64,000 nucleotides of DNA from Gemmatimonadota bacterium (GTDB taxonomy: Bacteria > JBHIER01 > G020348925): contig CP070758.1 of the NCBI GenBank assembly GCA_020348925.1, forward strand, positions 2,183,688-2,247,687. Reading direction: 5' to 3'. The notes beneath the pieces are model-generated. The model was not told where the DNA came from, made no database searches, and was given only the letters and a program-made list of their open reading frames with translations. Of the stretch, positions 1 to 32,606 are shown piece by piece (within the stretch, counting starts at the first letter, position 1; each line of letters starts with the position of its first letter). The translations under genes were made by a program, and so were the position numbers.

Positions 1-1075
1 ACATGTACCCCCCTTCGGATAAAGAGAACGGTATCGTGGTGGCCGGATTGAAGGGGTTCGGGTAATTCTGTAAAAGTTGAAACGTTTCGGGCATCATCTC
101 GGAGGGCTGTGGATGAACGGAGGTCATCTGATGTTCATCGTAATCCCATTCGCTGTAAAAGTTCGGATCGACCTCTCCCCAGGCGAACCGAACCGTCACC
201 TCGGGCTGTGTATCACTGAGGTTCACCATGTGCAGCGCACCGGAACCGCCCTCATTGTCACCGCCGTTGATACTCATCTTGAAATAATGGCTGATGAGAT
301 ACTCGGTATTGTTTCCGGGATACGACAACCGGATCGTGTAGATGGAGTCTCCGGAAATCATATCGCCGTGAGACCCATCGTCATAGAGTCGAAAGGGGGA
401 AAGTTCGATCCGTCTCCAGAATTGCCACTTGCCGGTGGGCGTTCCGTTGATAAAGACACCCAAGCTGTCGATACGATCAGGGTCGGTGATAGGATCGATG
501 GGAAATTCTATCTCCCTGTTCACAAACTCTTTTCCCGCCGACAAGGCGTAATATGCCGGGCGCATATCGCACTCCCAGACAACGACCACGTCCTGGGAGA
601 GCGTATTCGGATTGGGAAAGAGGGGCATTCGGTGGGATGTGACGATGCTGGGCTCAAAATCCTCGACGAATACCTCTTCTCCGGCCAAAAGAGCCTTGCG
701 TTTGTATTTGGGCGAACGAAATTGAGACCCGTCATAATAGTCGAAGAAGTACTCCTCCTGCTCCTCATCATTAAAAGAGGTCACATAGCGATAGAACAGG
801 GTATCTCCGATAACCGCATCAATCCGGGCAGAACCTTGATACCGAGAGGTGAAGCCGGAGCGCACAAGTGGAATATCGTACTCCTGGGCGGCAGTGGAAT
901 CGTACCCGCACCGGACGTGAAGGGGCTGTCCGATGATGAAGGAATTATTTTCATTAGCCCGCTGCGTATCGACCTGGAAGGTGATGTCAATCGTATCACC
1001 GGAGCTTACGGGCAGCAGGCAGAATACAAGGACAAGACCTATGGAAATCATTTGAAGACTATGGGGAAGTTTCAT
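1..1075 (-). CDS. T9SS type-A CTD-containing secreted protein. The gene runs off the left edge of the window (start codon at 1075, stop outside). It has an N-terminal signal peptide MKLPHSLQMISIGLVLVFCLLPVSSG, and the C-terminal ...ETFQLLQNYPNPFNPATTIPFSL motif sits at the window edge.
   Basis: I translated the reverse complement of 1-1080 by hand. It is a continuous reading frame from ATG at 1075-1073 to position 1 with no stop. The ORF tracker missed it because the stop lies outside the window. The plus-strand ORF 77-1180 is its antisense shadow. Confidence 0.7.
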   Translation of the reverse strand, partial: MKLPHSLQMISIGLVLVFCLLPVSSGDTIDITFQVDTQRANENNSFIIGQPLHVRCGYDSTAAQEYDIPLVRSGFTSRYQGSARIDAVIGDTLFYRYVTSFNDEEQEEYFFDYYDGSQFRSPKYKRKALLAGEEVFVEDFEPSIVTSHRMPLFPNPNTLSQDVVVVWECDMRPAYYALSAGKEFVNREIEFPIDPITDPDRIDSLGVFINGTPTGKWQFWRRIELSPFRLYDDGSHGDMISGDSIYTIRLSYPGNNTEYLISHYFKMSINGGDNEGGSGALHMVNLSDTQPEVTVRFAWGEVDPNFYSEWDYDEHQMTSVHPQPSEMMPETFQLLQNYPNPFNPATTIPFSLSEGGYM

Positions 1076-1140
1076 CGTTCTCCTTACTCGTGTCTCGTGA
1101 GAGATGGTGACATGGTCCTTATCAGACTCGATCTCAAGAT

Positions 1141-2193
1141 TCAAAATCCTATTCCGAGAGAAAAAATATGCACGTCCTGAAGGACGTCGTAACTTGTGTA
1201 GGCGTAGTCCACGTTCAGGGACCAGCCCTGGGCTTTATCGTACAAAAAACCGGCGCCGAAGGTGAGACCCTCGTAGCTGTCCTGTCTGAAGAGTGATTTA
1301 TATCCTCCCCTGAGGAACAGAAGATCGTTGATGGCAAATTCGCCGCCGATGTTGAGGGTTTCGGAATTGTCCGTCGGCCTCAGTGCGTCCGCCGTTACGG
1401 TGAATCGACGATTTTCGAGATTGACGAGATCATAGGCCAGCCCCACCCGAAAGAGTAATGGAAGAGGCCACGAATCGGTCTTGAGCTTGGAGACAATCGT
1501 CTCATTGTGTCCTTGAGTCTCCGGGTCAAGGTCCACCCTCTGCAGCAGATCTTTACCATCGAGCTGCATGTCCGATCCAAAGTTGCAAATACTCATGCCC
1601 AACCTCATGTTATTGAAGTCAGTTATAAATAACAGACCGACGTCGAAGGCGATACCGCTGGCGGTTTCGTTCCAGACCCTCTGCTGTATAAATTTCCACG
1701 TACCGCCGATGGAGAAGGCGGATGTCAGATTTCTTGCGTAGGACAGGCCTACTGCCAGATCGTACGCCCCCCACTCTTCACCGGTGTCCTCCTCATAAAC
1801 ATAGGTAACGCGTTCTTGGCCGTAATCGAGCTGGGTGAAGCTGACCCCCATCGTGCCCAGATTTCCCATATTCAACATGAGGCCGGCCCAGTTAAAATCC
1901 GTCCCCAGGAACCATTCGGCATGAGACACCATGAATTGCGATCGTCCCACTTCGAACTGGGAGAGCCCCACTCTGGAGAGTGCCCCGGGGTTCCAGTAGA
2001 GACAGCTGGCGTCATAGTGGGCCGCCACGCCCGCCCCTCCCATGGCCGCCGCTCTCGGTCCGACACCGATACCCAAAAACGGCGCTGCCGTTGTCCCGAC
2101 TTTTTTCTGTGCCTGTGCGAAGCCGAAACAGAGAAGGAGACACAAAACCGCCGTAGATGCAACTGTTACTGCTCTCACTTTTCCAGTTTTCAT
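1141..2193 (-). CDS. PorV/PorQ-family (UPF0164-like) T9SS-associated outer-membrane beta-barrel protein
   Basis: Signal peptide, then the family N-terminal signature ...AAPFLGIGVGPRAAAMGGAGVAAHYDASCLYWNPGAL. It is 350 aa and ends in an aromatic residue (F). It lies directly downstream of the large T9SS-CTD protein. Confidence 0.75.
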   Translation of the reverse strand: MKTGKVRAVTVASTAVLCLLLCFGFAQAQKKVGTTAAPFLGIGVGPRAAAMGGAGVAAHYDASCLYWNPGALSRVGLSQFEVGRSQFMVSHAEWFLGTDFNWAGLMLNMGNLGTMGVSFTQLDYGQERVTYVYEEDTGEEWGAYDLAVGLSYARNLTSAFSIGGTWKFIQQRVWNETASGIAFDVGLLFITDFNNMRLGMSICNFGSDMQLDGKDLLQRVDLDPETQGHNETIVSKLKTDSWPLPLLFRVGLAYDLVNLENRRFTVTADALRPTDNSETLNIGGEFAINDLLFLRGGYKSLFRQDSYEGLTFGAGFLYDKAQGWSLNVDYAYTSYDVLQDVHIFSLGIGF

Positions 2194-2209
2194 AGGTCAC
2201 TCCGTTTTT

Positions 2210-5200
2210 TCACTTGATAATGGCAATTTTGCCCCTTTTGGTTCCTACTTTGGACTCCACGACGTAGAAGTAAACGCCATAGGCAATATCGAGATTTTCC
2301 TTTGTCTTGAGATCCCAAGAAACGGTCCCATCGTAGATATTATTATCATGATACAATGTTTTGACATGCTCTCCCCTGCTTGTAAAAATATAGATCGTCG
2401 CTCCTTTCGGGAGATGTCGAAACTCGATGAGCCGGGTTCCACGCCCGCTGGTGATCCCAGGAGGCAGCGGAGGCTCGTGAGAGGTCCCGACGACGTAAGG
2501 ATTCGGGACGACCCTGATGGCATCCAGCTCCTCTTGCGCCTCTTCTTCTTCATACGATGGCGTCTCTGTGGTAAATTCGAAAACATCGCCGCGTCGGAAG
2601 GGTTTCAACATGCTCAATGTATACGTGTCCCCATCCCCGTAGGTGTACGTTGTTCCCGCTCCACTGACAAAGGTTAGGTCCCATGTGAGTATGAGAGAAT
2701 CATTCGGTCCCGGCTCGACAAGGATGACCTCGTCTTGATGAGAGAGCATTTGATTCATATCGATCTCAACCAGGAGAAAATCGACATAGCGCTCATCGGT
2801 CATGTTGTACACTCTGAAGTTCACGGGGGTGGGCGGGGGGAGCCAATTGGGAGGGATGCCCCCAATTTCATTGGTGGTCGTATCGACGATATCGTCTGAG
2901 AACTGTATTTGATAGTCACTGGGGTGGCGCAGGCCTCGAATCAAACCCGAGGGAAACTCACCCTCCGCTACCGTGACATTCACCTGGTAGGCCCTCGTCG
3001 GATCCGACCACTTCGACAAGGTATCTCTCTTATCCACACTCCAATGGTTGTTGAAGTTGAGAGTGAGACCGTCGAATATGTCCGTATCCATGGTCTCATC
3101 GACATAAGGGCTGTTCTGAATGTTAGGGCTCTTGTAGATAGGATAGTATTGAAAGGAGATCGTGTAATTTTTCCTCTCAAACGGTTCTGGGAATATCCCC
3201 CTTTCATCTCCCCGAATTCTTCCTCTCTCGAGATCAATCCTGTAGTCCTGTTCCGGCACGACGTTTCCCTCATCGTCCCTCACCGTTATCGTACCCTCGA
3301 TAAGGTGTGCATGTTTGAGCCGGACGTAGTTCGTGTCATTCGGTACGAACGTTTCCGTTATGCCAGTGGAGTCTCGGACAGAATACGAGGTGGTTATGGG
3401 AACCAAGAACTCCTCCGCATCGCTCTCATCTAAGTTCGGTTCCCCGGCATCCGGCAGTCCGTTTCCCTGGGACCCGTCCTCATCGATGGTGCTCGCATCG
3501 CCGTCCCGGCCCACATCATCCGTCACGATATCCCAATCGCCGTCATTGTCGATCCCGTCGTTGGATGTGTCGAAGAAATCCAGGATGTACTTGTGGCCGG
3601 TCAGCAATGAGTCGTGGAGCACCTTGGAATAAACGTCACCCGTCCCCACGATTGATTGGGCCCTGAGCGTATCGGCTCCCGGAGGAGGAACATATCCGAT
3701 CACTTCGGCTCGGGGCACGACGACAGCCGTATTCTGAAAGGTCAATATCTCACCCGTAGACTTGAAATCGATCCGAAAATCGTTTTCAGCGGGCAAAATA
3801 TCCTTGCCTTCATCGCCCCGATCATAGGCAACGAGAGCGTAGTAGTATCTCCGACCGTTTTCCACCAACGAGTCGACGTAGCTGTGCTCGAGTCCGCTGT
3901 CATCGCCCAAAAAGTACGTGTAGCCCCTGGTCTGAGGATACAGTTCCTCACTTGCCCTGAAATAATCCCTTATGCCATTGTCGAGATCAAATTGGGCCAG
4001 GGGTGCATATCCTTGCAACGTCCCATCGGCATCGGTGATCTGAAAGACATCATTGAAGTTATGGTCAGTGGCCCGGTAGATTTTATATCCCTCGAAATCG
4101 TGAACCCTGAGCACCGGATCAAAGGAAGCCTCGGCTCTCCGATCCCAGTACAGGGTGACCTTTCCGTCGCCGGGCACAGCGGTCAGCGTCGGCTTTTCAG
4201 GGGCCGGTGGGAAACGATAATCACTGTTATAAATATCTTGAACAGTCTCCCGATTCTTCAGGAGATCATCGATATCAACCCCCGGACCGCCGCCCTCACC
4301 GTAAACAAGTGCCAGTGAAATTCGTTCCGTCTGCCCCGCTCTGAGGGGAAAGTATCCGGAGCCGTATATGAAATCACCATCCTCCCCGCGCTCCGGCTTG
4401 TTATTAATTATGGAGCTCGGGACTTCGAAAAAACCGGGTGCTAACCGATCCCACATCTCCTCGTCATTGCCCATGGCAAACTCTCCGGCCGGTGTAAAGT
4501 ACTCAAAACTCGTCAACCCGATCTGATCGGACTCATCCACGTCCGTCTGATCAAAGTTGGGTTCACCGGCTGTCGGAACGCCATCCCCCTCCCCGAAATC
4601 ACCCGAACCGATGAGACCGTCGGCGCCGACATCGTCGAATTCAAAATCCCAATCCCCGTCGTTATCAATACCGTCGTCGCGCCGCTCGTCAATAAGGTCA
4701 TCAAAGACGCCCAAGCCGGAGACATAATCGATATAATGTGTCGGCGTGAGCTTATCGATCAGGGTATTGCCCTCCTGATCCCTCCGGATCTGACGATAGT
4801 GCAGGAAAAAATTCTCGTCGATGAGGCCATCCAGGTCGTTGTCAATGCCGTCGTAAGCATTGGAATTGACATAATCCCTCCTTCTCCCCCCCTCTATCCG
4901 ATAGAGAACATTTCCTTCAGCCAGCTTGGTCAGCCCGGGGGAAACGAAAATATCCGCACCGCGCGTGTGAAAGGTGGTGTCGTTCGTGGAAACTGTGACC
5001 ACCGTTCTCTGAAACGCATCGTCGATAAGAACGATCTGATCCCCCGCATTGATGAGGGTTGAATCGAAGTCGGAGGCTTCAAAAAGCGGACCGGTGGCCG
5101 GTATGGTAGGATGTGAATCCGCATCACGGTCATTGTCAATACCATCGAAAGGATTGCCCGGACTCTCTAAAAAGGCGTACCCCACGACACCGACTTCGCC

Positions 5201-6127
5201 GGTCCACAACGGATTCCTGGAGGCGTTATCGTCAAAATCGGCCGTATACGTCAGATCGCGCTCAACGTCGAAGAAAGAGTAGTCGTCGTCATACTCGCTG
5301 TAATCCTCTGTGGAGGTCACCCCGACATAGGTCCCGACGAGCATTCCGAAAACCACCTTGCTGTAATCCGTCGTACTGGTGTTCGTGATCTCATAGAGCC
5401 AAAAGATACAATCCTGGGCCAGAAATTGCCGCCACTGCATGCCCCGAACCTTCACCTCAAGCCCCAAACCGTGTCGATTGGGATCGGTGGCATCGGGTTG
5501 AAACGCGACACCCCAGCGATTGTTGCCGGCGACGTTGAACTCGTCGTCATTGTTGTCGTCCATGACGAAATAACTCTCCTCCGAGGCCGTCGTCGTCTTC
5601 CCGAAATATCCGTTCCAGGAATCCACCCAGCCGGGATCTTCGGGATCGTTCCTCTTATCCGGCCACCCTCCCAATTCAGCCGGGGGCCAGGAGTCTGGAT
5701 CCGAATAGAGTGCGACACTGACTTCATTCGGATCGCGATTTGAATTGAAGTATCCCTCCACAGGTTCAAATCCCCACTGCTTACCCGTCGTTGATACCTC
5801 CGGCTGGCTGGTCGGCCGTTGCACCGGGCACACGACAACGGAATGAAAGACCTGGTCGCCCTCGACGATCTCCGCGCCCACCAGGGGGCTGACATCGCCC
5901 ACGTAACCGTTGTTTTCATAAATCCACGCCCCCCTACTCCCCGCCGACGTGGGTTGACCTATGACACCCCAGTTCCCGAAGACCGTCTTGACCAGGTTCC
6001 CTTTCATTATGGCCGAACTCCTATATTCCCTCCCGCTCCTTCCGGTCTGACCTGATACGAGTCCAGACGCAACCAACACAACAAGTGAGAGGCTGACAAT
6101 ATGAACCGTTGTTCCTATACGTCTCAT
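2210..6127 (-). CDS. Large secreted surface protein (1305 aa). It has a signal peptide, repeated EF-hand-like DxDxDG loops (GIDNDGDWD..., GIDNDLDGLIDE), an FN3-like module (KVTLYWD...GYKIYRA...YYYALVAYD) and a divergent T9SS type-A-like C-terminal domain (VVPNPYV...IYIFTSRGEHVKTL...SWDL...YGVYFYVVES...KIAIIK).
   Basis: Long ORF. Motifs were read from the translation. It is a paralog of the 29995-32523 protein, sharing the FN3 region and the C-terminal module. Confidence 0.8.
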   Translation of the reverse strand: MRRIGTTVHIVSLSLVVLVASGLVSGQTGRSGREYRSSAIMKGNLVKTVFGNWGVIGQPTSAGSRGAWIYENNGYVGDVSPLVGAEIVEGDQVFHSVVVCPVQRPTSQPEVSTTGKQWGFEPVEGYFNSNRDPNEVSVALYSDPDSWPPAELGGWPDKRNDPEDPGWVDSWNGYFGKTTTASEESYFVMDDNNDDEFNVAGNNRWGVAFQPDATDPNRHGLGLEVKVRGMQWRQFLAQDCIFWLYEITNTSTTDYSKVVFGMLVGTYVGVTSTEDYSEYDDDYSFFDVERDLTYTADFDDNASRNPLWTGEVGVVGYAFLESPGNPFDGIDNDRDADSHPTIPATGPLFEASDFDSTLINAGDQIVLIDDAFQRTVVTVSTNDTTFHTRGADIFVSPGLTKLAEGNVLYRIEGGRRRDYVNSNAYDGIDNDLDGLIDENFFLHYRQIRRDQEGNTLIDKLTPTHYIDYVSGLGVFDDLIDERRDDGIDNDGDWDFEFDDVGADGLIGSGDFGEGDGVPTAGEPNFDQTDVDESDQIGLTSFEYFTPAGEFAMGNDEEMWDRLAPGFFEVPSSIINNKPERGEDGDFIYGSGYFPLRAGQTERISLALVYGEGGGPGVDIDDLLKNRETVQDIYNSDYRFPPAPEKPTLTAVPGDGKVTLYWDRRAEASFDPVLRVHDFEGYKIYRATDHNFNDVFQITDADGTLQGYAPLAQFDLDNGIRDYFRASEELYPQTRGYTYFLGDDSGLEHSYVDSLVENGRRYYYALVAYDRGDEGKDILPAENDFRIDFKSTGEILTFQNTAVVVPRAEVIGYVPPPGADTLRAQSIVGTGDVYSKVLHDSLLTGHKYILDFFDTSNDGIDNDGDWDIVTDDVGRDGDASTIDEDGSQGNGLPDAGEPNLDESDAEEFLVPITTSYSVRDSTGITETFVPNDTNYVRLKHAHLIEGTITVRDDEGNVVPEQDYRIDLERGRIRGDERGIFPEPFERKNYTISFQYYPIYKSPNIQNSPYVDETMDTDIFDGLTLNFNNHWSVDKRDTLSKWSDPTRAYQVNVTVAEGEFPSGLIRGLRHPSDYQIQFSDDIVDTTTNEIGGIPPNWLPPPTPVNFRVYNMTDERYVDFLLVEIDMNQMLSHQDEVILVEPGPNDSLILTWDLTFVSGAGTTYTYGDGDTYTLSMLKPFRRGDVFEFTTETPSYEEEEAQEELDAIRVVPNPYVVGTSHEPPLPPGITSGRGTRLIEFRHLPKGATIYIFTSRGEHVKTLYHDNNIYDGTVSWDLKTKENLDIAYGVYFYVVESKVGTKRGKIAIIK

Positions 6128-6149
6128 GCGATTCTCCTTAATTTTATCA

Positions 6150-7091
6150 TTAAAAGGAATACACGAAACCCAATTCGATTCTTCTTGGTTCCGAGTAGTG
6201 GGTCGTATTCGTAAACCATTCGCCGACGCTATTCACCGTTTGAACGGGATTCGAGCTCTCAGCTGTCCGCTGTTGCAATGAGAAACCCGCCCTGCCCGTA
6301 TCATCGTATACGTTGATCTCATTGAGTCTGTCAAATATATTGTAAACCTTAAGAAAGAGGGTCAGTTTCGTAGGTCCAAAATTAAAATCCTTGTAAGCGC
6401 GGGCATCGACATTGAGGAAGTAGGGCTTCTTTTGACTGTTGGTCAATAAAGCCGTGATGTCTTTGGATCGGCGGGGGGTGTACGGCATTCCGCTTCCATA
6501 TTGTCCGATGACACTGAACCCCCATGCCGAGCCAGCATATGAAAAGGTCGAATTGACCGTGTGCGTTTGATCCCAATCCATGTGCGTCATTTGTATCTCC
6601 GGCAGAGCCCCACCGGCTCTGGCGTTGCGGGCAGCCTCTGGATCCGAGTTGGACGCTTTGGCGACCTGATAGGTGTAATCGACGGACGCGGAGTACCCAC
6701 CCACGAACCGCTTGCTCAAGGCCAGTACGACGCCCCTCACCAATCCAAAATCACTGTTTGAAATCTTACTGTATCTGTCCCGAATACTGAAGATCTCGAT
6801 ATCCTCCGCCGAGGTCCCGGCCAGATCTCGGATGTCTCTGAAGTAGGCCGTCACGTCGAGAAGAACGTCCTCGCTCAACTGCTGCTGCAATCCGATTTCA
6901 CCGCTCACGGTTTTTTCAGGTTTCAGATCTGCGTTTCCGATAACGCCTGTATGCGCTTCCGTATGATCCAGTTCAAACTCCGGATTTTGATAGAGTCGCT
7001 CGAAACGGGGGATTTGAATGAAGTGTCCGTAGGAGAAATGAATGACACCACCCTCCATAAAAGGGAACGCCGCTCCAAACCTCGGACTCAC
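6150..7091 (-). CDS. C-terminal beta-barrel fragment of a SusC-like TonB-dependent receptor. It is in frame with 7413-9332 across a single TAA, so it is probably one disrupted gene (see findings).
   Basis: It ends ...RRIELGFVYSF with the terminal aromatic typical of TBDR barrels. The frame is open upstream into TBDR-barrel-like sequence (GFRVDYF...). It is paralogous to the 32607-35786 protein. Confidence 0.65.
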   Translation of the reverse strand: MSPRFGAAFPFMEGGVIHFSYGHFIQIPRFERLYQNPEFELDHTEAHTGVIGNADLKPEKTVSGEIGLQQQLSEDVLLDVTAYFRDIRDLAGTSAEDIEIFSIRDRYSKISNSDFGLVRGVVLALSKRFVGGYSASVDYTYQVAKASNSDPEAARNARAGGALPEIQMTHMDWDQTHTVNSTFSYAGSAWGFSVIGQYGSGMPYTPRRSKDITALLTNSQKKPYFLNVDARAYKDFNFGPTKLTLFLKVYNIFDRLNEINVYDDTGRAGFSLQQRTAESSNPVQTVNSVGEWFTNTTHYSEPRRIELGFVYSF

Positions 7092-7412
7092 AAAAACTTT
7101 CGTGTCCGCATCTTTGTACCAATATGTTGCTCTGTCCTCGACACTCTTGGCACTATCCCCCTCATCCCCGTAAAACCCATTCCCGTTCGAATCCCAATAC
7201 TTATTCTCATCCTTGACCGGATGGTAAATTTCCGGATCGGTCTCATCGGTGAGGATGCGGGCATCCGGATCGAAGTAGTCAACGCGGAAGCCTATATTGA
7301 CTATAAAATTCTTGAATTCGATTTTATCCTGAATATATCCCGAGAACTCGATCGGATTGTATTCGTAACGACTCGTATGAATGGTCGTATCGGAATATAT
7401 CTGAGGATGAAT

Positions 7413-9332
7413 TTACGGATTTTCCCAAAAGAGATTTTTGTCGATCTCCAACGAGTCCGGTTGCACTGTTATATCCTCAAAAAACAAAGAATGATGGCGG
7501 ACTTCGGTACCCCATTTGAGTTGATGGATCCGTGTCACTTGGGCGGTCCAGTCGGTTTTTCCCAGCCACGTCTTGGTGTCACGCTTGAAGCGCTGATTAT
7601 TCGTGCCACCCGTATGGAAACTGTACGGGTCGAGATCTATCAACAAGTAGTCGTGCACATAGCTCGTATCATCCCGGTTATCGTAAACAGAATGCCAATA
7701 TCTCTTTAAGAAATACGACAGCGAGCTTTCATAAAACACTTTGGAGTTCAACGTATGGGTGAATTTTAGAATGTTAACGTAGCCCCGGCGGTGCCGCTCC
7801 ACATCCCCATCCGGGTTGTACTGATACATCCGTTCGTAATCCCGGTAGTCAACACCGTCATAGATGAAGTTGTACGAAAGCTGGGCCTGGGGTGTTATTT
7901 TATAGATCAACTTCGTCTGATTGTAAAGTTTCTCACTCCAGTTCATGGGCACGTATTCCCCGTCTCCCATTCCACCCTTGTGAACTTGGCGAAAATAGTC
8001 CACGATCTCTCCGGTATAAGCGGCAATCGTGTCAGGATTATTTCTATGTTCCGGGGGAATAATTGCGTCGAGGATTTCCTCATACATCCAATCATTAATG
8101 ACCAGATGTGAATCGATAACGGCGTTTGAGCCTAAAATATATTGCACCGACTGAAAATGACCTTCCGCGTCTGTCGCTCGACCAAGGGAAAGATACTCCG
8201 GCGCAAATGCTTCCAAATACCAGGTGGGCAGACCGTAAACCGGGAGGTCGTACACGACGGTATCAACACACTCGTCTTCTTCCCATATACACCGTACATA
8301 ATCTGAGCTATCTATTTCTTCCAAGTCCCAATACCATGAGGGAATACGTTCGACCGGGAAGCTATCCACCTCGGTATTCTCGAGTTCAAAAAGTGGTCCG
8401 GTCACCGCACTCGGATCATAGCGCCGCTGTCCGTACTGCCACCCGTCAAAATGGATACCCCGCCCGTTCACGAAAAAGAAAAGCTTGTCCTTGATAATGG
8501 CCCCACTCAGGTTCCCCTCAAAATTTCGAATGGCAAAGGGATCGACACGGCTGATGGCTCTGAAGATATGATCGTTATCGCTGGCATAGTCTCCGATATA
8601 CCCTGTTATCGAGCCACTGAATTCGTTGCTCCCCTGTTTGGTCGCAATGTTCACAATGCCGGACATGGCCTGACCGTATTCGGCATTGTACGCCCCGCTC
8701 ACAAGCTGCATCTCCTGCACCATGCCTTTGCCCACTTCAACCACTTGATTGCCGTCATAGACATCAGTCACAGGCACGCCGTCAATCCAGTAGGCGATCT
8801 CCCCGCTCCTCCCCCCTCTCAGGTGCAGACCGTCCCGATCCACAATGCCGGCCTGAAGCTGGAGAGCCTCACTGACCTCAGTAATGGGCAGGGCCTCCAT
8901 CTGCTTGGCCTCGACAATAGCCGTGGAGGCGGTCAGATCTTTCACCACCATTTGCCGCTCGGCCGTTACCGTAATGGCCTCACCAAGGGCGATCACCTGG
9001 GATTGGAGCTGAAAATCGACGGTTGTCGTCAGATCGAGAGAGACATTGATATTTTCGATCCGCATGGATTGATAGCCGATCATTGAAGCTCTGAGGGTAT
9101 ACGCGCCTGGGGGGATATTGAGCATCACGTAATACCCGTCAAAATCCGAAGCCGCTCCCATTGAGGTTCCCTCGACGATGACATTGGCGAAGGGGAGCGG
9201 TTCACCGCTCTCCGTATCGACGATCCTGCCGGCAATTTTCCCTGTTGTTCCCCACAATGAAACGCCCGCCCAGGAGAGTACGAGCAGAACTGTAAAAATG
9301 GAAAGACAAGAGAAAGCTCTTTTTTCTCGCAT
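7413..9332 (-). CDS. N-terminal part of a SusC-like TonB-dependent receptor: signal peptide, carboxypeptidase-regulatory-like domain, plug domain and the start of the barrel. It ends at an in-frame TAA.
   Basis: GKIAGRIVDTESGEPLPFANVIVEGTSMGAASDFDGYYVMLNIPPGAYTLRASMIGYQS matches the CarbopepD_reg-like domain. ...ITVTAERQMVVKD...LRGGRSGE... matches the plug. It is colinear with the 1081-aa paralog at 32607-35852. Confidence 0.75.
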   Translation of the reverse strand: MREKRAFSCLSIFTVLLVLSWAGVSLWGTTGKIAGRIVDTESGEPLPFANVIVEGTSMGAASDFDGYYVMLNIPPGAYTLRASMIGYQSMRIENINVSLDLTTTVDFQLQSQVIALGEAITVTAERQMVVKDLTASTAIVEAKQMEALPITEVSEALQLQAGIVDRDGLHLRGGRSGEIAYWIDGVPVTDVYDGNQVVEVGKGMVQEMQLVSGAYNAEYGQAMSGIVNIATKQGSNEFSGSITGYIGDYASDNDHIFRAISRVDPFAIRNFEGNLSGAIIKDKLFFFVNGRGIHFDGWQYGQRRYDPSAVTGPLFELENTEVDSFPVERIPSWYWDLEEIDSSDYVRCIWEEDECVDTVVYDLPVYGLPTWYLEAFAPEYLSLGRATDAEGHFQSVQYILGSNAVIDSHLVINDWMYEEILDAIIPPEHRNNPDTIAAYTGEIVDYFRQVHKGGMGDGEYVPMNWSEKLYNQTKLIYKITPQAQLSYNFIYDGVDYRDYERMYQYNPDGDVERHRRGYVNILKFTHTLNSKVFYESSLSYFLKRYWHSVYDNRDDTSYVHDYLLIDLDPYSFHTGGTNNQRFKRDTKTWLGKTDWTAQVTRIHQLKWGTEVRHHSLFFEDITVQPDSLEIDKNLFWENP

Positions 9333-9349
9333 CGTGATTTCCTTTGGTT

Positions 9350-10389
9350 CTAAGTGATTTGGTTATGGGATTGGTGTCTCAGGGCACCGCACGTATTTCT
9401 TACGATCAATGATGTATGAAAAACCTTTTTAAAACCATTTGTGACGACATCCGTAATGCATTCAACCAATCTGTCTACGGCCAGTTTCCCCATTTCGAAC
9501 ATCGGTTGTCGCATCGTCGTCAGGCCGATATATTGAGCCAATTCTATATCATCAAATCCCACAATAGCCATATCGTTGGGAACGTTTAAACCGTCCTCTT
9601 CAATGGCTTTCATGGCACCAATGGCCTGAATGTCACTCGACACGAACACAGCGGTGGGCCTATTGCTTCCAAGATGCAGCAACTGCTTCATGGCCTGGTA
9701 GCCCGCTTTTCTATTAAACCCGTCTTCACCGGTGACATAGTCGCTGATGACAAGATACTCCCGCCTGAAACCGATATCATGGTCTCGGAGTGCATTCTTA
9801 TATCCTTCGAGTCTTACTCGGGCCGGTGAGCTTTTCAGGTGCCCGTCGATCATACCTATTCTTGAATGACCCTGACGAATGAGATGCTGCGTGGCCACAT
9901 AGGCCCCCCGCCTGTTCTCAACCGTGACAGAATCCAAGTCAGGGTGATAACTGTCAACAAGAACGATGGGCAGGCGAGAGCGGCGAAGTTCCCACACTTC
10001 ATTATTGGTCATTTCAAGGGAGATGAGGAGCATCCCGTCCACTTTTCGCTCCTGCAGAACCTTCCTCAGAATCATCTCCTTCTTGTTTGTCTCATCGACA
10101 TTATAGAGAATTAAATCGTACTGAAATTTGGATACTTCCCCCTGAATACCCCTGAGCAATTCCACAAAAAAATAGCCCGTAAAAAACGGAACAACAACTC
10201 CGATCGTGTTCGTCCTTCTACGGGCCAATCCACGGGCCGAGGCGTGAGGCCGATAGCCCAATTCTTTCACAACAGCCAGGACTTTTTCCTTCGTCCTGGG
10301 AGCTATAGAGCCGCTATTGTTTATTGCTCGTGAAACCGTGCCAATCCCGACACCGGCTCTCTTGGCGACATCATAAATGGTGACTGACA
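9350..10389 (-). CDS. LacI-family transcriptional regulator. The likely true start is MSVTIYDVAKRAGVGIGTVSRAINN at 10389, preceded by an AAGGAGAG RBS.
   Basis: N-terminal HTH motif (DVAKRAGVSxxTVSR) and a C-terminal periplasmic-binding-protein-like sugar-binding fold (IVGFDD...). It sits only 17 bp upstream of the TBDR start. Confidence 0.85.
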
Positions 10390-10404
10390 TCAACATTCTC
10401 TCCT

Positions 10405-10422
10405 TTGTGGAAGCGCTTCCAC
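10405..10422. promoter_or_regulatory. Perfect 18-bp palindrome TGTGGAAGCGCTTCCACA, a lac-operator-like candidate LacI-family operator. It lies just upstream of the RBS of the LacI-family gene.
   Basis: The palindrome was read directly. Compare the symmetric lac operator core TGTGAGCGCTCACA. Confidence 0.5.
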
Positions 10423-10956
10423 ATTTGGAAGTATACAAAAAACCGTGTACCGTGTCAAGCACTTTTTTTAAAAAAATGAATTATTATTAAAAAAAAAGGT
10501 GATAGTATCATTACGGCGAGAACGACCTTCCTTTCAGATTATTTTATTAATAATCAGATAATTACGATTAACACAGGATTACCGATACGGATCCTGAAAA
10601 GATTTTGAGTGGCCGACAACTCAATACTCCGAGTCATTTCTTGTCCTTGTAGATACGGAGTTGGTGAAAGAATTCGTCGACGTAAGTCAAAAATTGAAAT
10701 TTACCGGATTTTCATGCAATGTTCATGTTGTTAGGAGTTGTACGATGTTCTGAAAAATACGCAGAACCCATGAGCTGAAACTCTTGACCACCCAGTATAT
10801 CTATCCCATTCCCTCCCCTGCCATGGCTTCGGCGAAGAACGGTTCGCAAAGTGAGGAGACTAAAAATGTTCTGCAAAAGGAAGATGCACTTACGAATTCG
10901 AATCCTACAAATCACTCGAGTACATGAACAAGCGGAACCTTTTCTAACACCCCCAT

Positions 10957-17524: not shown

Positions 17525-20500
17525 CTACTTCATGAGCACCATGCTCTTGGTCGCCGACCATCGGCCGCGATCAACAGACAGCCGATAGAAATAGATTCCA
17601 CTGGAGACCTCGTTCCCCAGGCCGTCCCTGCCGTCCCATGTCACCGTGTAGTACCCCGGCTTCCTAAATTCATCCACCAGAGTCCGCACCTCCTGCCCCA
17701 AGACATTATAAATCTTCAGGGTCGTGTGGAGTGGGGATCCACCATCAACTATCTGATATCTAATATCTGTCGCAGGGTTGAAGGGATTGGGATAGTTCTG
17801 AGCGAGGGAGAACTCCTGAGGCACCTGGCCGCCCTCCACGTCCGAGGAGGTTTTCATCTCTTCGATTTGGAATGCTCTGCCGCTAACGTCGACCAGAATC
17901 AACTCGTCGAGCAAAACGTCACTGGATTCCGAAGATATGTCGTAGGGGACGGTAACCATCGGTTCGTCGCCTGGAGTCATGGCTCGACCATCGGTACTGT
18001 ATAAGACAAAGATCGTCCCGTCGTCCTTTCGATTCGAGGCTACGGTCATTCCTGGATTCCGGTGACTCCAGACGGGTTCTCCGACCGATACTCCATCTCC
18101 ATATTTGAGACGGAACTGGACACCGGCAATAGGCACGTCCGCCTGCACATACATCGCACACTCGCCTCGGGTGTCGCACGTCATCGGAGCAGTCCGAACC
18201 TCAACCCGGGCCGACGCCCGCCCCTCCGGTATGACCGCTTTGGGGTTGAGGATCCTGTTGACGATATTGATGGCGTCAATAATGTCCACCCCCCCGTCCT
18301 CATTGAAATCGGCCGCCCACTGCGCGTAGGCACTGGTCTCCACCCCCAGCACGACATTGACGGCACCAAGCACATCGATGATATCGATGTTGCCATCGCA
18401 ATTGACATCACCCCGCTCAACCTTGGACCAGATCATAATATCGTCGACCGTCCAGCCATCAGCCGTCCCGGCCTCATCGCTCACCACACGAAAGCGAATG
18501 CGGACCTCTTCATTGCCTGGGCCACAGAATCCCTCCAGGAGAGTGCACCGCTTCTTGACCGGATAACCGTCGAAGCCGGTAAAACTCTCCAAAGCCGTCC
18601 AGCTCTCACCGTCACTACTGGCCTCCACGTAACCGAAATCATTGCCATCCTCAAAGGAGTAAAAATGCCAGAATGTGAGGGCCGCTTCCGTACAGGAAGA
18701 GAGATCAAAGGCCTCCTGATACATCAGAGGGTTATCCTCATTGTCCTCGTAATCCCCTTGCGGGCTGTCGACAATGGATGTGGAGTTGTTGACACCGAAG
18801 CCACCCAGCCCCGACCCTGTTCCCAGATCCCATCCTCCAGTCCCGGTCTCAAAATCGCCCAAGACGAGATAGGGAATAAGTTCGAAAGCGAAGACGTCAG
18901 AAGTCGCCGTATTGTGGTTGCTGGACGCATCGACGACCTCAACATAGTAATTGACAATATCTCCGAATTGTCCGGACCATTCTAACGTCGCTCCGTATTC
19001 TTCGGGTATGCCTGTGCCCGTCATCAATACTCCAGTAAACGGCTCGTCATTGAGCTGATAATACAACGTCACCTCTCCAACCCCCAGATTGTCGGTCACT
19101 TTGGCGGTGACCTCTCTTTCCCCGGAGAGGAGATAGGTATCCGGCAACTGATCGACCCTCAAAATCTCAGGCGCAGTCACATCCGGTTGAACAGCGAAGG
19201 CATGGACCTTCGTGGGAGCTCCCAGAGGCGATTGCCATTCGTAATACGGATTTTCCGTGGTGACATAATATTGGATTGTGGTCTCGGTTCCGGGAGGAGG
19301 TATCGTCCCGGCGTACACTCCATCTCCCCGATGCGTCATGGTCACCGTGGAGAAGGACGGCGATGTTTCCTTCTTCCAGTAGAGCGTAACACCCGTGAGA
19401 TCGCTGATGTCACCGGTCACGGTCACCTCAACCGGATAGGAACTGCTCGGATCCTCACTATCTTTCAGCGGATCGTGCCAGATGAAGTTCACCCAGTTGA
19501 GGATCCTGGTCATCACTTCTGTCCTGACGGCCGATGGTTGTGACGGATCCAGTTCAGGCGTCGCATCAATAGCCTCAAAACCGAAACCGAAATATATGAC
19601 CCGGTGATCACCCTGGTATTTGATACCACCCTTGTGATGCAGGCCACCTGCATATTCAAAGACACCACTGGCCCCGGGGCCGGGCTCAATTTCGTCAGGG
19701 TACTGTTGATCAGCATCCCGACCAGGATGATAGATATCGAAACTGAGGCCGTCACCGATTTCGTCCCCGAGGATACCATCAACGCTCTGAATACCGCTGT
19801 TATCGGCATAATAGACGGCGTGCAAATAGTTTTCGTAGAAATCGACGAATCCGGAACGATCGCCCTCGTTGAAATCCCAGCCGACATCCTGGCCGGAGAT
19901 AAAGAGGTTTCCGCCGTTGTCCAAATAGTCCTCTACGGCGGCCATGTCTCCAACGTCCAGACTGGGGAAGGTCCACTCGCAGGCCCAGATGACGATGGGG
20001 ACATTGGAGAGAATAAACGGGGTCGGGCTTCCCAGGCTGGCGTGATCCCAGACCGCATACAACACGTTCAAGCCGTCCAGGATGTTGGTGTAGTACCCCT
20101 CAACGTTGTTCTCGCCATCGTCGTCATCGACCAGGAGAACGGGCATCTTGCCAAGAATAACCGCGAAAGTATCCGTACCGCTGATGCCACCATCAGCGAG
20201 AAACTGTAAGAAAAGCCTGGCCATGTGTGGCTCAGCATCCGGGGCTATGGAAAAGACCAAAGGATCCGAAGTCGCCTGAAAGGTGTCCGCAGGAAACGTT
20301 CCCACAAAGGAACTGCCATCGTCGATCGTCAGATCAGGATCGTCAGTGTCCAGAGAGACCTGAAAATTGGTCGCAGCCCCCAGCGAGTAATTTCGGTATT
20401 GGGCAGTGACGTTGATTGTCTCACCTCGCTCGAAAAGGCCGTCACCGTCACCGTTGACCGCATCGTCCGGTGTCACGTTAAAATTGAGAATCTTTGGCGG

Positions 20501-21955
20501 GACCTCCGTCAAGACCGTAGCAGTGACAGCATTGTACGCATTGACGCGCCCGCTGCCCAGAAGCCCCTCGAGACCGGGATTCTGCGCGTCGATATTGTCT
20601 GCCGTGAGAGCCACCTGTCTGACAATACGGTCGTTAGACCAGCCCGGATGCTGGGATTTCACCAGCCCGCACAGACCGGCCACGATGGGACAGGACATGG
20701 AGCTTCCGTTGGCGGAACCGTACGAGCCGCCAACGACAGGTATGGTCGTTAGCGTCTGCGTTCCGGGGGCACAGACGTCGATGGAAATACCGTACGTGGC
20801 TTCTCGCCTGTCCTGATTATTGATCCATCCCGCGCTGAGAACATTGACATAGCTGGAAGGATAGTGTAAAAGATCGGTATCGTCATTCCCCCCGGAGGCC
20901 ACGACAATACTGCCCAGGCCGTAAACATAATCGATCACATCCTGATTCGCCTGGGAATAACTGCCGAAGCCACCCCAACTGCAGCTGATGATATCCGCCC
21001 CATTTTCGGCCGCGTAAATGATTCCCTGATACCCGAAGGAGACGAAACGAGGACTGTCGTCGTAACTGCACTTGATGGCCATGACCCTGCAGTTCCACGA
21101 CACTCCGGCGACCCCTGTACCATTGTTCGTCACGGCGGCGGCCAGTCCGGAGGTTAAAGTACCGTGATCATAATAGCCCTGAGCATCCGGAGTGGGGTGT
21201 GTCGGATTGTTGTCCTCTTCAGCCAGGTCGTAGCCGATGAGATCGTACACATACGTCTCCGAATTGTTGTCCCAATCGTCATCGTCGACACCGTTGAGAT
21301 CGCCGGGGTCCAGGACCCAGCCGCCGTCCACCCACTCGAGAGTATGGCCGTCCCCGTCGGCATCCTCCCCCAAGTTCTGCCAGATGTTATCGAGCAGATC
21401 AGGATGCTCCCAATCAGGTCCGTTGTCAACTATGGCAATAACTATAGCATCGTCACCATGCTGGATGTCCCAGGCTTGGGCGGCCCGTATGCGGGTCATA
21501 AACGTCTGCTGACCGAACATCGGATCATCCGGTGTTTCTTCAATGACCGGCACGGAGATGGGCTCGGCGTACTCGACGTTCGGATCCTGCGCAAATGCAC
21601 GCGCCACCGATTCCGGATCAAGGTGCGGTGGAAACGAAAGAGAATAGATCCGAGACAGATCCGGCAGACCGGAGCCGTCAGGGATGGGCCTGTGTTGAAA
21701 CCGTTTTCTCACTTCCTGGACGGAGAACCGGTCCATCTTTTCGTCGAAAGAGCTCATTCCAGTGACGGTGAAACGCTCCGTCCCTTTGGCTACCACATGA
21801 GGTTTCAACTTCACGACCACCTTCCCGGGCTCGAGTGTGGCCGACGCTGGGCCCGACAGTGTATGGGACTTTGTATATTGACTTCCCACCCCCGGTATTG
21901 AAATACTTAGAATGAAAAAGCTGAAAATCATAGTACCGGCTATTATACGTCTCAT
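17525..21955 (-). CDS. Very large (1476 aa) secreted subtilisin-like serine protease (peptidase S8) with a T9SS type-A C-terminal sorting domain
   Basis: Signal peptide. S8 catalytic motifs: IAIVDNGPDWEHPDL (Asp), DHGTLTSG (His), GSSMSCPIVAG (Ser). The C-terminus is ...LAQNYPNPFNPATDIRYQI...KIYNVLGQEVRTL...WDGRD...SGIYFYRL...KSMVLMK. Confidence 0.85.
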   Translation of the reverse strand: MRRIIAGTMIFSFFILSISIPGVGSQYTKSHTLSGPASATLEPGKVVVKLKPHVVAKGTERFTVTGMSSFDEKMDRFSVQEVRKRFQHRPIPDGSGLPDLSRIYSLSFPPHLDPESVARAFAQDPNVEYAEPISVPVIEETPDDPMFGQQTFMTRIRAAQAWDIQHGDDAIVIAIVDNGPDWEHPDLLDNIWQNLGEDADGDGHTLEWVDGGWVLDPGDLNGVDDDDWDNNSETYVYDLIGYDLAEEDNNPTHPTPDAQGYYDHGTLTSGLAAAVTNNGTGVAGVSWNCRVMAIKCSYDDSPRFVSFGYQGIIYAAENGADIISCSWGGFGSYSQANQDVIDYVYGLGSIVVASGGNDDTDLLHYPSSYVNVLSAGWINNQDRREATYGISIDVCAPGTQTLTTIPVVGGSYGSANGSSMSCPIVAGLCGLVKSQHPGWSNDRIVRQVALTADNIDAQNPGLEGLLGSGRVNAYNAVTATVLTEVPPKILNFNVTPDDAVNGDGDGLFERGETINVTAQYRNYSLGAATNFQVSLDTDDPDLTIDDGSSFVGTFPADTFQATSDPLVFSIAPDAEPHMARLFLQFLADGGISGTDTFAVILGKMPVLLVDDDDGENNVEGYYTNILDGLNVLYAVWDHASLGSPTPFILSNVPIVIWACEWTFPSLDVGDMAAVEDYLDNGGNLFISGQDVGWDFNEGDRSGFVDFYENYLHAVYYADNSGIQSVDGILGDEIGDGLSFDIYHPGRDADQQYPDEIEPGPGASGVFEYAGGLHHKGGIKYQGDHRVIYFGFGFEAIDATPELDPSQPSAVRTEVMTRILNWVNFIWHDPLKDSEDPSSSYPVEVTVTGDISDLTGVTLYWKKETSPSFSTVTMTHRGDGVYAGTIPPPGTETTIQYYVTTENPYYEWQSPLGAPTKVHAFAVQPDVTAPEILRVDQLPDTYLLSGEREVTAKVTDNLGVGEVTLYYQLNDEPFTGVLMTGTGIPEEYGATLEWSGQFGDIVNYYVEVVDASSNHNTATSDVFAFELIPYLVLGDFETGTGGWDLGTGSGLGGFGVNNSTSIVDSPQGDYEDNEDNPLMYQEAFDLSSCTEAALTFWHFYSFEDGNDFGYVEASSDGESWTALESFTGFDGYPVKKRCTLLEGFCGPGNEEVRIRFRVVSDEAGTADGWTVDDIMIWSKVERGDVNCDGNIDIIDVLGAVNVVLGVETSAYAQWAADFNEDGGVDIIDAINIVNRILNPKAVIPEGRASARVEVRTAPMTCDTRGECAMYVQADVPIAGVQFRLKYGDGVSVGEPVWSHRNPGMTVASNRKDDGTIFVLYSTDGRAMTPGDEPMVTVPYDISSESSDVLLDELILVDVSGRAFQIEEMKTSSDVEGGQVPQEFSLAQNYPNPFNPATDIRYQIVDGGSPLHTTLKIYNVLGQEVRTLVDEFRKPGYYTVTWDGRDGLGNEVSSGIYFYRLSVDRGRWSATKSMVLMK

Positions 21956-22427
21956 TATACTCTTCTCCTTAAAATTCCCTCGATTTTAATGTCAGTGACA
22001 TGACATTCGGATTGACCGCGTGTCGCAGTCGGTTTCGTAATCCTCCCCCTAAACCGTCACACATGCTTCCCCTTTCACCCAACCCTCAATACTTCCATTG
22101 AACTGCAAAGGTTTCACGTTTCTATGGTGGCTCCCTCCTTTTTATGATTTTTTTAATTTGGTTGGTTTATCAGCATCATCGTCAGCATCTTCCCCGGCGT
22201 CGTCTTAATATATATCCTTTGAGCCATATGAAACAACCGCAACACAATCATAGGTATTGAATGATATACAATGACAGGACAATAATCCTTGACTTAAATC
22301 AAAACACTGAAAATGAGCCATACGGGTGACGTGTCCGGGTTGACTGCACCATAATGAGAAAAAAGCCACTGAGTCCTCTGGACCCAGTGGCTTTCCTCAT
22401 ATTCTGACCTTTCGATCAGAAGGTCGG

Positions 22428-24674: not shown

Positions 24675-24875
24675 TCTCCCTCATTAGTTTTTCATCTCAA
24701 TAAAATTTCACGTCGTGCTGAAACAAAGACTTTAGAATTTTCGGAAACGTCGCCTCACCTCCTTTCAATGAAAAGAAAACCTCACACACCAGCTGTAGGA
24801 ACAAAAAATCATCACCCCCTTTCTCAAATTGAAACAGATTTGTGCTACCCTCCTTCATGAACCATTGGTTTTCTC

Positions 24876-26027: not shown

Positions 26028-26083
26028 AGCCCGCTCCTTCGAAAGATTGAAAATGATACGATTTCTTGTCGCATACATTCGAT

Positions 26084-29942: not shown

Positions 29943-29994
29943 CTTAGCGCCCCTCCTTCTATGAATGCTTTGGTCTCTGGATATTTCATATGTC

Positions 29995-32523: not shown

Positions 32524-32606
32524 CGCCTTTCACCTCCAGAAAAGTTCACCTCTCAAACAAGGGGAGCGGCTGTTGCGTCAACAGCCGCTCCCCTCCCCAT
32601 TGCATT

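Follow-up and report, generated by a model that had tools for sequence, protein, structure and literature searches.

A conserved triad of TonB-dependent receptor, T9SS-type surface protein and PorV/PorQ-family barrel in a proposed α-glucan operon outside the Bacteroidota

We analysed a 64-kb stretch of DNA (the window, by which we mean the whole of it) from a metagenome-assembled genome (MAG) that NCBI labels Gemmatimonadota, with locus tags beginning JSV84_. On its minus strand, five genes follow one another: a LacI-family repressor, a TonB-dependent receptor (TBDR1), a 1305-residue secreted protein that we call BIG1, an outer-membrane β-barrel of the PorV/PorQ family, and a type A cargo protein of the secretion system of type IX (T9SS). 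The receptor, BIG1 and the barrel form a triad whose order is kept across phyla, and a second, divergent triad (cassette 2) lies in the same window. On balance, we favour the reading that cassette 1 is a LacI-repressed operon for α-glucans (starch or maltooligosaccharides) of a non-Bacteroidota member of the Fibrobacteres-Chlorobi-Bacteroidetes (FCB) group, in which BIG1, delivered by the T9SS and held by its cognate barrel, partners the receptor.

According to this reading, BIG1 would be exported by the T9SS and would retain its C-terminal domain (CTD), the PorV/PorQ-family barrel of the next gene downstream tethering it to the cell surface, whereas ordinary type A cargo is cleaved and attached to lipopolysaccharide (LPS). 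The tethered protein would then act as the extracellular substrate-binding partner, a co-receptor or lid, of the adjacent receptor, and TBDR1 would import the oligosaccharides freed by the neighbouring T9SS-secreted amylases and CBM20 proteins. Cassette 2 is the same three-part module in an anciently diverged, paralogous form. We infer the T9SS dependence of the BIG proteins, the retention of their CTD by the barrel, their physical association with the receptor and the nature of the ligand from the observations described below.

A first-pass annotation, made from the DNA alone, had described this locus as a nutrient-capture module resembling a polysaccharide utilisation locus (PUL), with a T9SS-type surface protein and its own barrel beside the receptor. 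The gene set, strand and order that it gave hold, several of its details do not, and the proposal itself is partly supported, its core being well supported by the comparative evidence.

The triad is conserved and inherited as a unit

When one genome was scanned for each GTDB species, at least 540 carriers turned up, and the locus counts given here refer to the best 80 species representatives among them. These are labelled KSB1, Marinimicrobia/Neomarinimicrobiota, Fidelibacterota, Ignavibacteriota, Calditrichota and Cloacimonetes, together with assorted mislabelled “Bacteroidetes” MAGs. A TBDR1-like gene lies directly upstream of the BIG1 homologue on the same strand in 76 of the 80 loci, and a gene for a barrel like that of cassette 1 (PORV1) lies directly downstream on the same strand, also in 76. 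The loci without one of the partners end at contig ends, and every locus with room has the full triad. The projected median gaps are about 0 nt between the receptor and BIG genes and about 5 nt between the BIG and barrel genes, and in several loci the genes overlap by 4 or 11 nt. More than 3400 BIG1 homologues are detectable; the best 120 are 52-100% identical over their full length, and all the database names listed for the family read “hypothetical protein”. Across phyla, the proteins of the module are 48-73% identical.

The three parts also co-segregate. In type-1 loci, the receptor, surface protein and barrel are TBDR1-, BIG1- and PORV1-like, and in type-2 loci they are TBDR2-, BIG2- and PORV2-like. 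Because of this, we conclude that the triad underwent an ancient duplication as one unit and has been passed on whole ever since. The co-conservation of the triad in the 80 species representatives wherever there is room, together with the co-segregation of its parts, bears out the earlier view that the arrangement is functional rather than coincidental. Since the nearest named homologues of both BIG proteins belong mostly to candidate division KSB1, the phylum label Gemmatimonadota looks doubtful.

No SusD-family domain was found among the called genes of six loci (L001, L002, L005, L006, L088 and L090), and the adjacent susC/susD pair by which PULDB strictly defines a PUL is absent. With no SusD homologue and a receptor outside the SusC family, it is only through function and context that the locus resembles a PUL.

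A third class of triad was also observed (L088:249-8846 and L090:3215-11503), consisting of a receptor with a CarboxypepD_reg domain, a BIG-type-CTD protein of 1476-1592 residues with faint matches to Reg_prop (β-propeller), and a PorV-family barrel. Its neighbours are FG-GAP CTD proteins and, in L088 only, a GDSL lipase.

The genes around the triad point to α-glucans

One KSB1 type-1 locus contains, besides the LacI gene and the triad, an amylase, a CTD protein, a CTD-bearing amylase, an SSF symporter and GH77, while a second type-1 locus contains a pullulanase, a CBM20-CTD protein and a CTD-bearing amylase. In other phyla, type-1 loci carry GH97 (Marinimicrobia), GH77 (Ignavibacteriota), or a CBM20-CTD protein and an SSF symporter (Calditrichota). 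The α-glucan gene context is consistent across phyla. It extends to the locus under study: locus L004, from the same population but assembled independently, reaches 2451 nt beyond the window and contains the whole 417-residue cargo gene, followed by a gene with CBM_20 and Dockerin_1 domains, two genes downstream of the triad. The product of the 417-residue gene has a Por_Secre_tail match of 31.4 bits in L004 (gathering threshold, GA, 27), in agreement with the first-pass annotation, which had placed another T9SS-CTD protein 65 bp after the barrel.

The product of the first gene matches PF00356, PF00532 and PF13377 and, with its helix-turn-helix, periplasmic-binding-protein-like effector domain and palindromic CG-centred operator, belongs to the LacI/GalR family; its CcpA- and RbsR-like matches in NCBIfam are all below the equivalog cutoffs. 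The operator, a perfect 18-bp palindrome with a central GCGC, TGTGGAAGCGCTTCCACA, sits between the -10 box and the ribosome-binding site of the LacI gene (AAGGAG, 3' of the palindrome); the window has this one match, where chance would give 0.02. The sigma-70-like promoter upstream of it, TTGACA-17 nt-TATACT, matches 11 of 12 consensus positions and is the top-scoring promoter-like site within positions 1-11000. The operator core, GGAAGCGCTTCC, is kept just upstream of LacI in at least ten orthologous loci from different phyla, including Ignavibacteriota. In one locus (L014), GGAAGCGCTTCC is found twice, at 2661 and 3852, that is, upstream of LacI and between LacI and the receptor gene; this doubling suggests that the structural genes may be controlled separately in some lineages.

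The minus strand, the gene order, and the LacI regulator with its operator (Pfam LacI and Peripla_BP_3; the 18-bp palindrome) are as first described. The gap between LacI and TBDR1 is 17 bp, as annotated (9332 to 9350), and that between the barrel and the next gene is 65 bp; the gaps of 23 and 17 bp given earlier for TBDR1-BIG1 and BIG1-barrel are 22 and 16 bp. Table 1 compiles the coordinates of all features. A scan for terminators gave 12 candidates against 10.6 in shuffled sequence, with no excess, and was not used.

Table 1. Features of the two cassettes and their surroundings, in window coordinates (aa, amino acids; a dot marks a feature without strand).
Feature	Coordinates	Strand	Basis or remarks
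N-terminal 358 codons of the 417-aa T9SS type A cargo protein	1..1075	-	gene extends past the window start
PorV/PorQ-family outer-membrane β-barrel, 350 aa, proposed BIG1 anchor/shuttle	1141..2193	-	NF033709, 205 bits
BIG-type CTD, divergent T9SS C-terminal β-sandwich signal	2210..2539	-	VVPNPY…IFT..G..V…YHD…WDL…GVYFYVVES…GKIAIIK
BIG1, 1305-aa secreted protein	2210..6127	-	Sec signal peptide without lipobox, supersandwich, FN3-like and further β-sandwich domains, CTD
TBDR1, TonB-dependent receptor, 1060 codons	6150..9332	-	CarbopepD_reg_2, Plug, TonB_dep_Rec_b-barrel (Pfam)
In-frame TAA, codon 640 of TBDR1	7413..7415	-	single-base difference from TAT in L004
LacI-family transcriptional repressor, first operon gene	9350..10390	-	Pfam LacI, Peripla_BP_1, Peripla_BP_3
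LacI-family operator, 18-bp palindrome	10406..10423	.	between -10 box and LacI ribosome-binding site
Sigma-70-like promoter	10430..10458	-	upstream of the LacI gene
Genes downstream of cassette 2	17525..28732	-	Pfam scan
S8 subtilase, 1476 aa, with dockerin and type A CTD	17525-21955	-	Fervidolysin-like prodomain, InhA-like MAM, type I dockerin
Two type A CTD proteins	26084-28732 and 22428-24674	-	Pfam
400-aa protein without family match	24876-26078	-	Pfam scan
Cassette 2 PorV/PorQ-family barrel, 341 aa	28917..29942	-	NF033709, 233 bits
BIG2, cassette 2 surface protein, 842 aa	29995..32523	-	supersandwich, FN3-like and BIG-type CTD plan
TBDR2, cassette 2 TonB-dependent receptor, 1081 aa, intact	32607..35852	-	CarbopepD_reg_2, Plug, TonB_dep_Rec_b-barrel

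TBDR1 is a TonB-dependent receptor outside the SusC/RagA family

TBDR1 consists of a signal peptide, a CarboxypepD_reg N-terminal extension, a candidate TonB box, a plug and a barrel of the 22-strand type. The domains that define a generic TonB-dependent receptor, PF07715 and PF00593, both score above GA in TBDR1; in TBDR2, PF00593 is above GA and Plug reaches 19.4 bits (GA 23.9). The TonB-box-like motifs ahead of the plug, EAITVTAER in TBDR1 and EAVTVTAER in TBDR2, were read directly from the sequence. The gene has the 1060 codons first attributed to it, in a frame that the window interrupts with a TAA.

The label “SusC-like” holds for the N-terminal CarboxypepD_reg and plug part and fails for membership of the SusC/RagA family, since the hidden Markov model (HMM) TIGR04056 has a cutoff of 368 bits and gives 61 bits for the N-terminal part of TBDR1 and 67 bits for TBDR2, covering model positions 2-207 and 2-117 of 981, respectively. 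A sequence search of the PDB with TBDR2 retrieved carboxypeptidase-domain chains only, with no SusC chain at E ≤ 0.001.

The BIG proteins are predicted to be all-β and unrelated to SusD

The secreted protein has the 1305 residues annotated earlier. Its N-terminal region is a galactose-mutarotase-like β-supersandwich with D/N-rich Ca-loop motifs. BIG1 has no Pfam or NCBIfam match at E < 0.01, so that no curated HMM covers it; neither BIG1 nor BIG2 matches a SusD-family Pfam model, and a profile of the BIG1 family against PDB sequences gave nothing significant (best E-value 0.25). The DxDxDG Ca-loops reported in the plural reduce to one canonical loop, DNDLDG from residue 431 (regular-expression match at 429), the others being three DGIDND-type variants that were read by eye and not picked up by the expression. 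The D/N-rich motifs of the DGIDND type, of which one is the canonical loop, are invariant throughout the family.

AlphaFold2 models built with family alignments were rated usable: residues 30-1200 of BIG1 have a predicted local distance difference test (pLDDT) score of 84.1 and a predicted template modelling score (pTM) of 0.76, and full-length BIG2 has a pLDDT of 79.7 and a pTM of 0.79. Both models are nearly all β-strand with short helices only, and neither contains a SusD-like tetratricopeptide repeat (TPR) fold or a recognisable catalytic domain; the predicted BIG fold is all-β and unrelated to SusD. A Foldseek search of the PDB with the BIG1 model returned weak FN3 tandem matches only, and no further domain was assigned. 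The FN3 module named in the first-pass annotation therefore appears in the predicted structure and not at the HMM level. The enzymes listed alongside the BIG models are bacterial glucoamylase, glucodextranase, dextran dextrinase, and GH94 and GH65 phosphorylases.

Two other identities for the BIG proteins were considered and set aside. As glycoside hydrolases, they would need a catalytic domain of the (α/α)6 or TIM-barrel kind, which the models lack, an enzyme of an unknown β-fold being formally possible. The BIG proteins have Sec signal peptides; as lipoproteins, they would also need a lipobox, and a lipobox-like motif is present in just 7 of 120 and 3 of 67 members of the two families. The signal peptide of BIG2 itself ends in the lipobox-like LLGC, which would make it a lipoprotein and a CTD protein at once; since only 3 of the 67 family members have the motif, it is probably incidental.

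The supersandwich of BIG2 (residues 45-550, window ~30874-32391) recurs at 63-67% identity with other C-termini in P0125, P0126, P0128, P0129 and L087. Some of these copies end in a dockerin, including P0129 (JSV84_05935) of the same MAG, and others in a canonical type A CTD.

A distinct CTD subclass seems to go with the PorV/PorQ-family barrel

The tail of BIG1 had been annotated as a type A-like CTD. A T9SS-type CTD it is, by alignment, although the curated type A HMMs do not recognise it. Its motifs line up one by one with those of four canonical type A CTDs from proteins in or next to the window, where there are at least four such proteins (an indirect support for T9SS export), and hhalign relates it to the CTD of cassette 2 with 99.6% probability; on these grounds we assign it to the T9SS-type CTDs. 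The last 109 residues of BIG1, taken alone, match the type B model PF13585 (CHU_C) with 21.3 bits (E 2.9e-4), and the BIG2 CTD matches it with 24.1 bits (E 3.9e-5), both under the GA of 27, so that a CTD is detectable by HMM in the 1305-residue protein only under the curated thresholds. Among the 120 BIG1 homologues listed, 3 have a precomputed PF13585 match. With the type A models, BIG1 gives no match, and BIG2 reaches 18.1 bits for TIGR04183 (cutoff 23) and 16.4 bits for PF18962 (cutoff 27); NCBI names BIG2 a type A sorting-domain protein despite these scores.

The two CTDs define a subclass with the pattern VVPNPY…F.(H/N)LP…I.IFT..G..V…YHD…WDL…G(V/L)Y.YVVE, distinct from the tails of ordinary type A cargo in the same genome (QNYPNPFNP…SGVYFYRL…K.MvLmK). 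A profile of both detects 1686 representatives at E ≤ 1e-10 in a library clustered at 50% identity, with lengths of about 660-1600 residues. We looked up four of them: each has a PorV-family gene next downstream, and the two for which upstream sequence is available have a CarboxypepD_reg receptor gene before them; two of the four are truncated BIG1 orthologues, and two belong to the third class (1476-1592 residues). A paralogue in L087, which combines the BIG2 supersandwich with a canonical type A CTD, stands alone without a receptor or barrel neighbour. From this one example, it seems that the special CTD, and not the cargo domain, goes with the barrel.

The 350-residue barrel was rightly placed in the PorV/PorQ family and is not a generic porin: it scores 205 bits with NF033709 (cutoff 90) over the full model (positions 1-326 of 326), and its C-terminus, …GIGF, is a β-signal. 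Within the family, it is neither PorV nor PorQ proper. The two barrels reach 73-102 bits with NF033710 (PorV, cutoff 250) and 90-93 bits with NF033711 (PorQ, cutoff 220), in both cases for the N-terminal halves only, and the 350-residue barrel is also under the PorV2 equivalog cutoff. Neither barrel matches PorP/SprF at E ≤ 0.01 in NCBIfam or Pfam.

Alternative explanations

Several points count against the proposed partnership. Adjacency and co-inheritance are no proof of physical contact between BIG and the receptor or between BIG and the barrel, and to give BIG the functional role of SusD, beyond the gene position that it occupies, is a further step of interpretation. The first-pass annotation took the SusC-SusD pairing of Bacteroidota as its expectation; the organism is not a member of the Bacteroidota, which makes that pairing the wrong null expectation. 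LacI accompanies the triad in only about one third of the loci. The CTD of BIG1 is below the curated thresholds of both T9SS CTD models, its best HMM match being to the type B and not the type A model, and the architecture of TBDR1 equally fits the Oar subclass. The supersandwich is a generic fold, found also in YidC and mutarotases, and is therefore no proof of carbohydrate binding. Moreover, with at least 48% identity across phyla and more than 150 invariant positions, BIG1 is unusually conserved for a glycan-binding protein and could have a structural or enzymatic role instead. Finally, the TAA splits TBDR1 into two open reading frames (ORFs) in the window.

BIG and its barrel could instead be a surface display pair that works beside the transporter and not on it, with BIG binding polymers or acting as a scaffold, like SusE/F or other surface glycan-binding proteins, or organising dockerin enzymes, and so concentrating substrate or enzymes near the cell, while the receptor imports the products alone. 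A large, multi-domain, all-β build with FN3-like spacers is typical of surface-binding and scaffold proteins, dockerin-type modules are present on neighbouring enzymes (the CBM20 protein and the S8 subtilase), and the BIG2 supersandwich is also found in free-standing T9SS or dockerin proteins without a receptor. Proteobacterial sugar loci with TonB-dependent transporters (TBDTs), the carbohydrate utilisation (CUT) loci of Xanthomonas and Caulobacter, work without lids. Against a mere display pair stand the invariant gene order, with receptor and BIG genes often overlapping, and the co-segregation of receptor type with BIG type, which suggest a tighter, stoichiometric relation than that of the accessory binding proteins of PULs, usually variable and poorly conserved. 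We consider the display pair possible but rather unlikely. It is improbable, in our view, that the barrel is a small-molecule channel of the FadL/PorV fold or a general T9SS part, and BIG an ordinary cargo that is cleaved and then either anchored to LPS or released, the two not being a cognate pair. Weak matches of the cassette 2 barrel to Toluene_X (FadL) and UPF0164 in Pfam would fit a channel, and NF033709 is a broad family in which neither barrel reaches the PorV or PorQ equivalog cutoff. A non-cognate or general role nevertheless fits the comparative data poorly: the barrel type follows the BIG type between genomes, each tested BIG-type-CTD protein has a barrel gene directly downstream, often overlapping, which the paralogue with a type A CTD does not, and in the same window many canonical type A cargo genes lack a barrel partner.

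The receptor could also be an exporter that, like Oar of Myxococcus, helps BIG or a neighbour to cross or insert at the outer membrane, the PorV-like barrel being the receiver. Both receptors have the architecture of the Oar subclass and lack SusC/RagA membership, and their orthologues match PF25183 (OMP_b-brl_4). This too fits the comparative data poorly and is, we think, very improbable, given that BIG and its neighbours already carry T9SS-type CTDs as an export route and that the catabolic context, with glycoside hydrolases, a sugar symporter and a LacI repressor, calls for an importer; to our knowledge, there is one secretion-linked TBDT (Oar) against many importers. As for the in-frame TAA, there is a slim chance that it is a real nonsense mutation and that cassette 1 is an inactive or decaying copy in this genome. 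The stop is present in the window sequence; it is, however, the only disruption in the 3183 nt of TBDR1, and the flanking genes are all intact. The independent Logan assembly of the same population, which differs from the window at 18 of 10,307 positions (99.8% identity along 10.3 kb), has TAT (Tyr) at this codon (L004:2893-2895), and the gene caller gives an intact product of 1060 residues. For these reasons, we regard the stop as a single-base variant or consensus error, and not as old decay; a consensus error or minority variant is at least as likely as a real nonsense mutation. A recoded stop or programmed readthrough is ruled out, the TAA being a lone one and the independent assembly having TAT.

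Relation to known systems

Among the known systems closest to the proposed operon are the Sus system of Bacteroides (SusC/SusD with SusE/F/G) and the SusCD-type PULs, including RagAB. It shares with Sus a substrate-regulated α-glucan operon, a TonB-dependent transporter with a CarboxypepD_reg-type extension, a surface-protein gene immediately downstream, and surface amylases and starch-binding modules encoded alongside; the second, paralogous set beside proteases parallels RagAB, which serves peptides. It differs in its transporter, which fails the SusC/RagA HMM (61-67 against 368 bits, N-terminus only), and in the partner, here an all-β, non-lipidated protein of 842-1305 residues with a T9SS-type CTD and not a SusD-type TPR lipoprotein. 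The obligatory PorV-family barrel has no counterpart in Sus, the regulator is of the LacI type and not SusR or a hybrid two-component system, and the hosts are KSB1, Marinimicrobia, Ignavibacteriota and relatives instead of Bacteroidota. SusC/SusD pairs are almost confined to the Bacteroidota (10.1101/2023.03.17.533168).

For the anchoring of a T9SS cargo by a barrel, there are direct precedents: the retained CTD of PorZ is bound by PorQ and that of PorU by PorV, and type B cargo is held by an adjacently encoded PorP/SprF (PMC10202324, PMC9143113). As in PorZ-PorQ, PorU-PorV, SprB-SprF and PG1035-PorP, the gene for a dedicated PorV-like outer-membrane barrel adjoins that of the cargo, and the best, sub-threshold match of the BIG CTD is to CHU_C, which recalls the type B cargo of PorP/SprF. 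The barrel described here, however, belongs to NF033709 without a match to PorP/SprF, the pair is fixed to a TonB-dependent transporter in catabolic loci while the known pairs serve the secretion machinery or gliding adhesins, and the hosts are outside the Bacteroidota.

Other co-receptors are built differently. In Bacteroides, non-SusD lids (BtuG, XusB, DUF4876 and others) adjoin non-SusC TBDTs and have been proposed to cap or feed them (10.1101/2023.03.17.533168). They resemble BIG in being surface proteins unrelated to SusD beside non-SusC TBDTs; they differ in being lipoproteins of the Bacteroidota lipoprotein pathway for small substrates (cobamides, siderophores), with no dedicated barrel. 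The Slam/DUF560 loci of type XI secretion, for instance TbpA-TbpB-Slam and HrpA-HrpB-HrpC, co-encode receptor, co-receptor and dedicated barrel (PMC8406197), and thus follow the same three-part logic in which a barrel brings the co-receptor to the surface. The families are unrelated, with a DUF560 barrel and TbpBBD cargo for metals or haem in Proteobacteria, against a PorV-like barrel and a T9SS CTD here. The Oar protein of Myxococcus xanthus, likened to TBDR1 by architecture alone, has the same CarboxypepD_reg extension, plug and barrel at about 1000-1080 residues (PMC6434023) and differs in being implicated in protein export and not lying in a sugar-catabolic operon.

We also advance, more tentatively and with somewhat less than even confidence, that the triad forms a three-protein complex in which a PorV-like barrel captures a T9SS cargo by its uncleaved, specialised CTD and the cargo caps the cognate receptor. 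This would be a third type of utilisome, besides SusD lids and Slam/T11SS, in FCB phyla other than the Bacteroidota (KSB1, Marinimicrobia, Ignavibacteriota, Calditrichota and Cloacimonetes), serving at least three substrate classes (α-glucan, protease-associated and β-propeller). If it is true, uptake machinery would be assembled by way of the T9SS and the PorV paralogues would be modular surface anchors, a suggested new job for both in assembling transporter co-receptors. The triad is a strong candidate for the missing machinery by which abundant environmental relatives of the Bacteroidota, such as the oceanic Marinimicrobia or the KSB1, Ignavibacteriota and Calditrichota of sediments and reactors, take up polymers. 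The CTD subclass predicts the gene neighbourhood, and the module offers a three-gene signature for annotating PUL-like loci outside the Bacteroidota. Its components and principles are known already: PUL-like loci built on TBDTs, the CTDs of the T9SS, and PorV-like anchors that are cognate to their cargo. In the literature searched on PorV-like, T9SS and TonB-dependent genes in KSB1, Marinimicrobia and Ignavibacteria and on PULs of the FCB group, we found no description of the triad, and the paper on the Caldithrix genome contains no mention of SusC or SusD.

Cassette 2 and its surroundings

Cassette 2 spans 28917-35852 and repeats the plan of receptor, BIG and barrel. The first-pass annotation had described the architecture as exactly duplicated; the three-gene architecture is the same, and the copy is a divergent paralogue. 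Between the cassettes, the barrels are 36% identical and the receptors 30-41%, while the BIG proteins can be aligned by BLAST only in the CTD and the start of FN3. The order is kept in orthologues from candidate division LCP-89 and another MAG.

Downstream of cassette 2 lie the two type A CTD proteins, the 400-residue protein and the S8 subtilase (Table 1), and in two orthologous loci (L005 and L006) CTD proteins are followed by a C25 peptidase or a protein with an InhA-like MAM domain (faint match). Directly upstream, positions 36534-57000 of the minus strand hold genes for the breakdown of leucine and branched-chain amino acids, among them those for a class IV aminotransferase, two acyl-CoA dehydrogenases, a biotin carboxylase and carboxyltransferase resembling methylcrotonyl-CoA carboxylase, enoyl-CoA hydratases, three thiolases and an SDR. 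Because of the protease cargo and these catabolic neighbours, cassette 2 probably serves a substrate derived from proteins or peptides, a link weaker than that of cassette 1 to α-glucans.

In the cassette 2 orthologues, an ORF of conserved length, 62 residues, lies just upstream of the receptor gene (L005:5715-5903 and L006:6574-6762). In the 680-bp gap upstream of TBDR2 (35853-36533), no obvious equivalent was seen, the sole candidate being a GTG-initiated ORF of 50 residues at 35874-36026.

Dockerins are present both on the S8 subtilase and on the CBM20 protein encoded beyond the window start (L004:10590-12758), which hints at a surface assembly of the cohesin-dockerin kind in this organism. 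TBDR2 contains long D/N/G-rich inserts at residues ~440-620 and 1046-1060, for example EDLDGDGYLDTEDLD and EDLNGDGFWD, which resemble the Ca-loop motifs of the BIG proteins and are presumably situated in extracellular loops.

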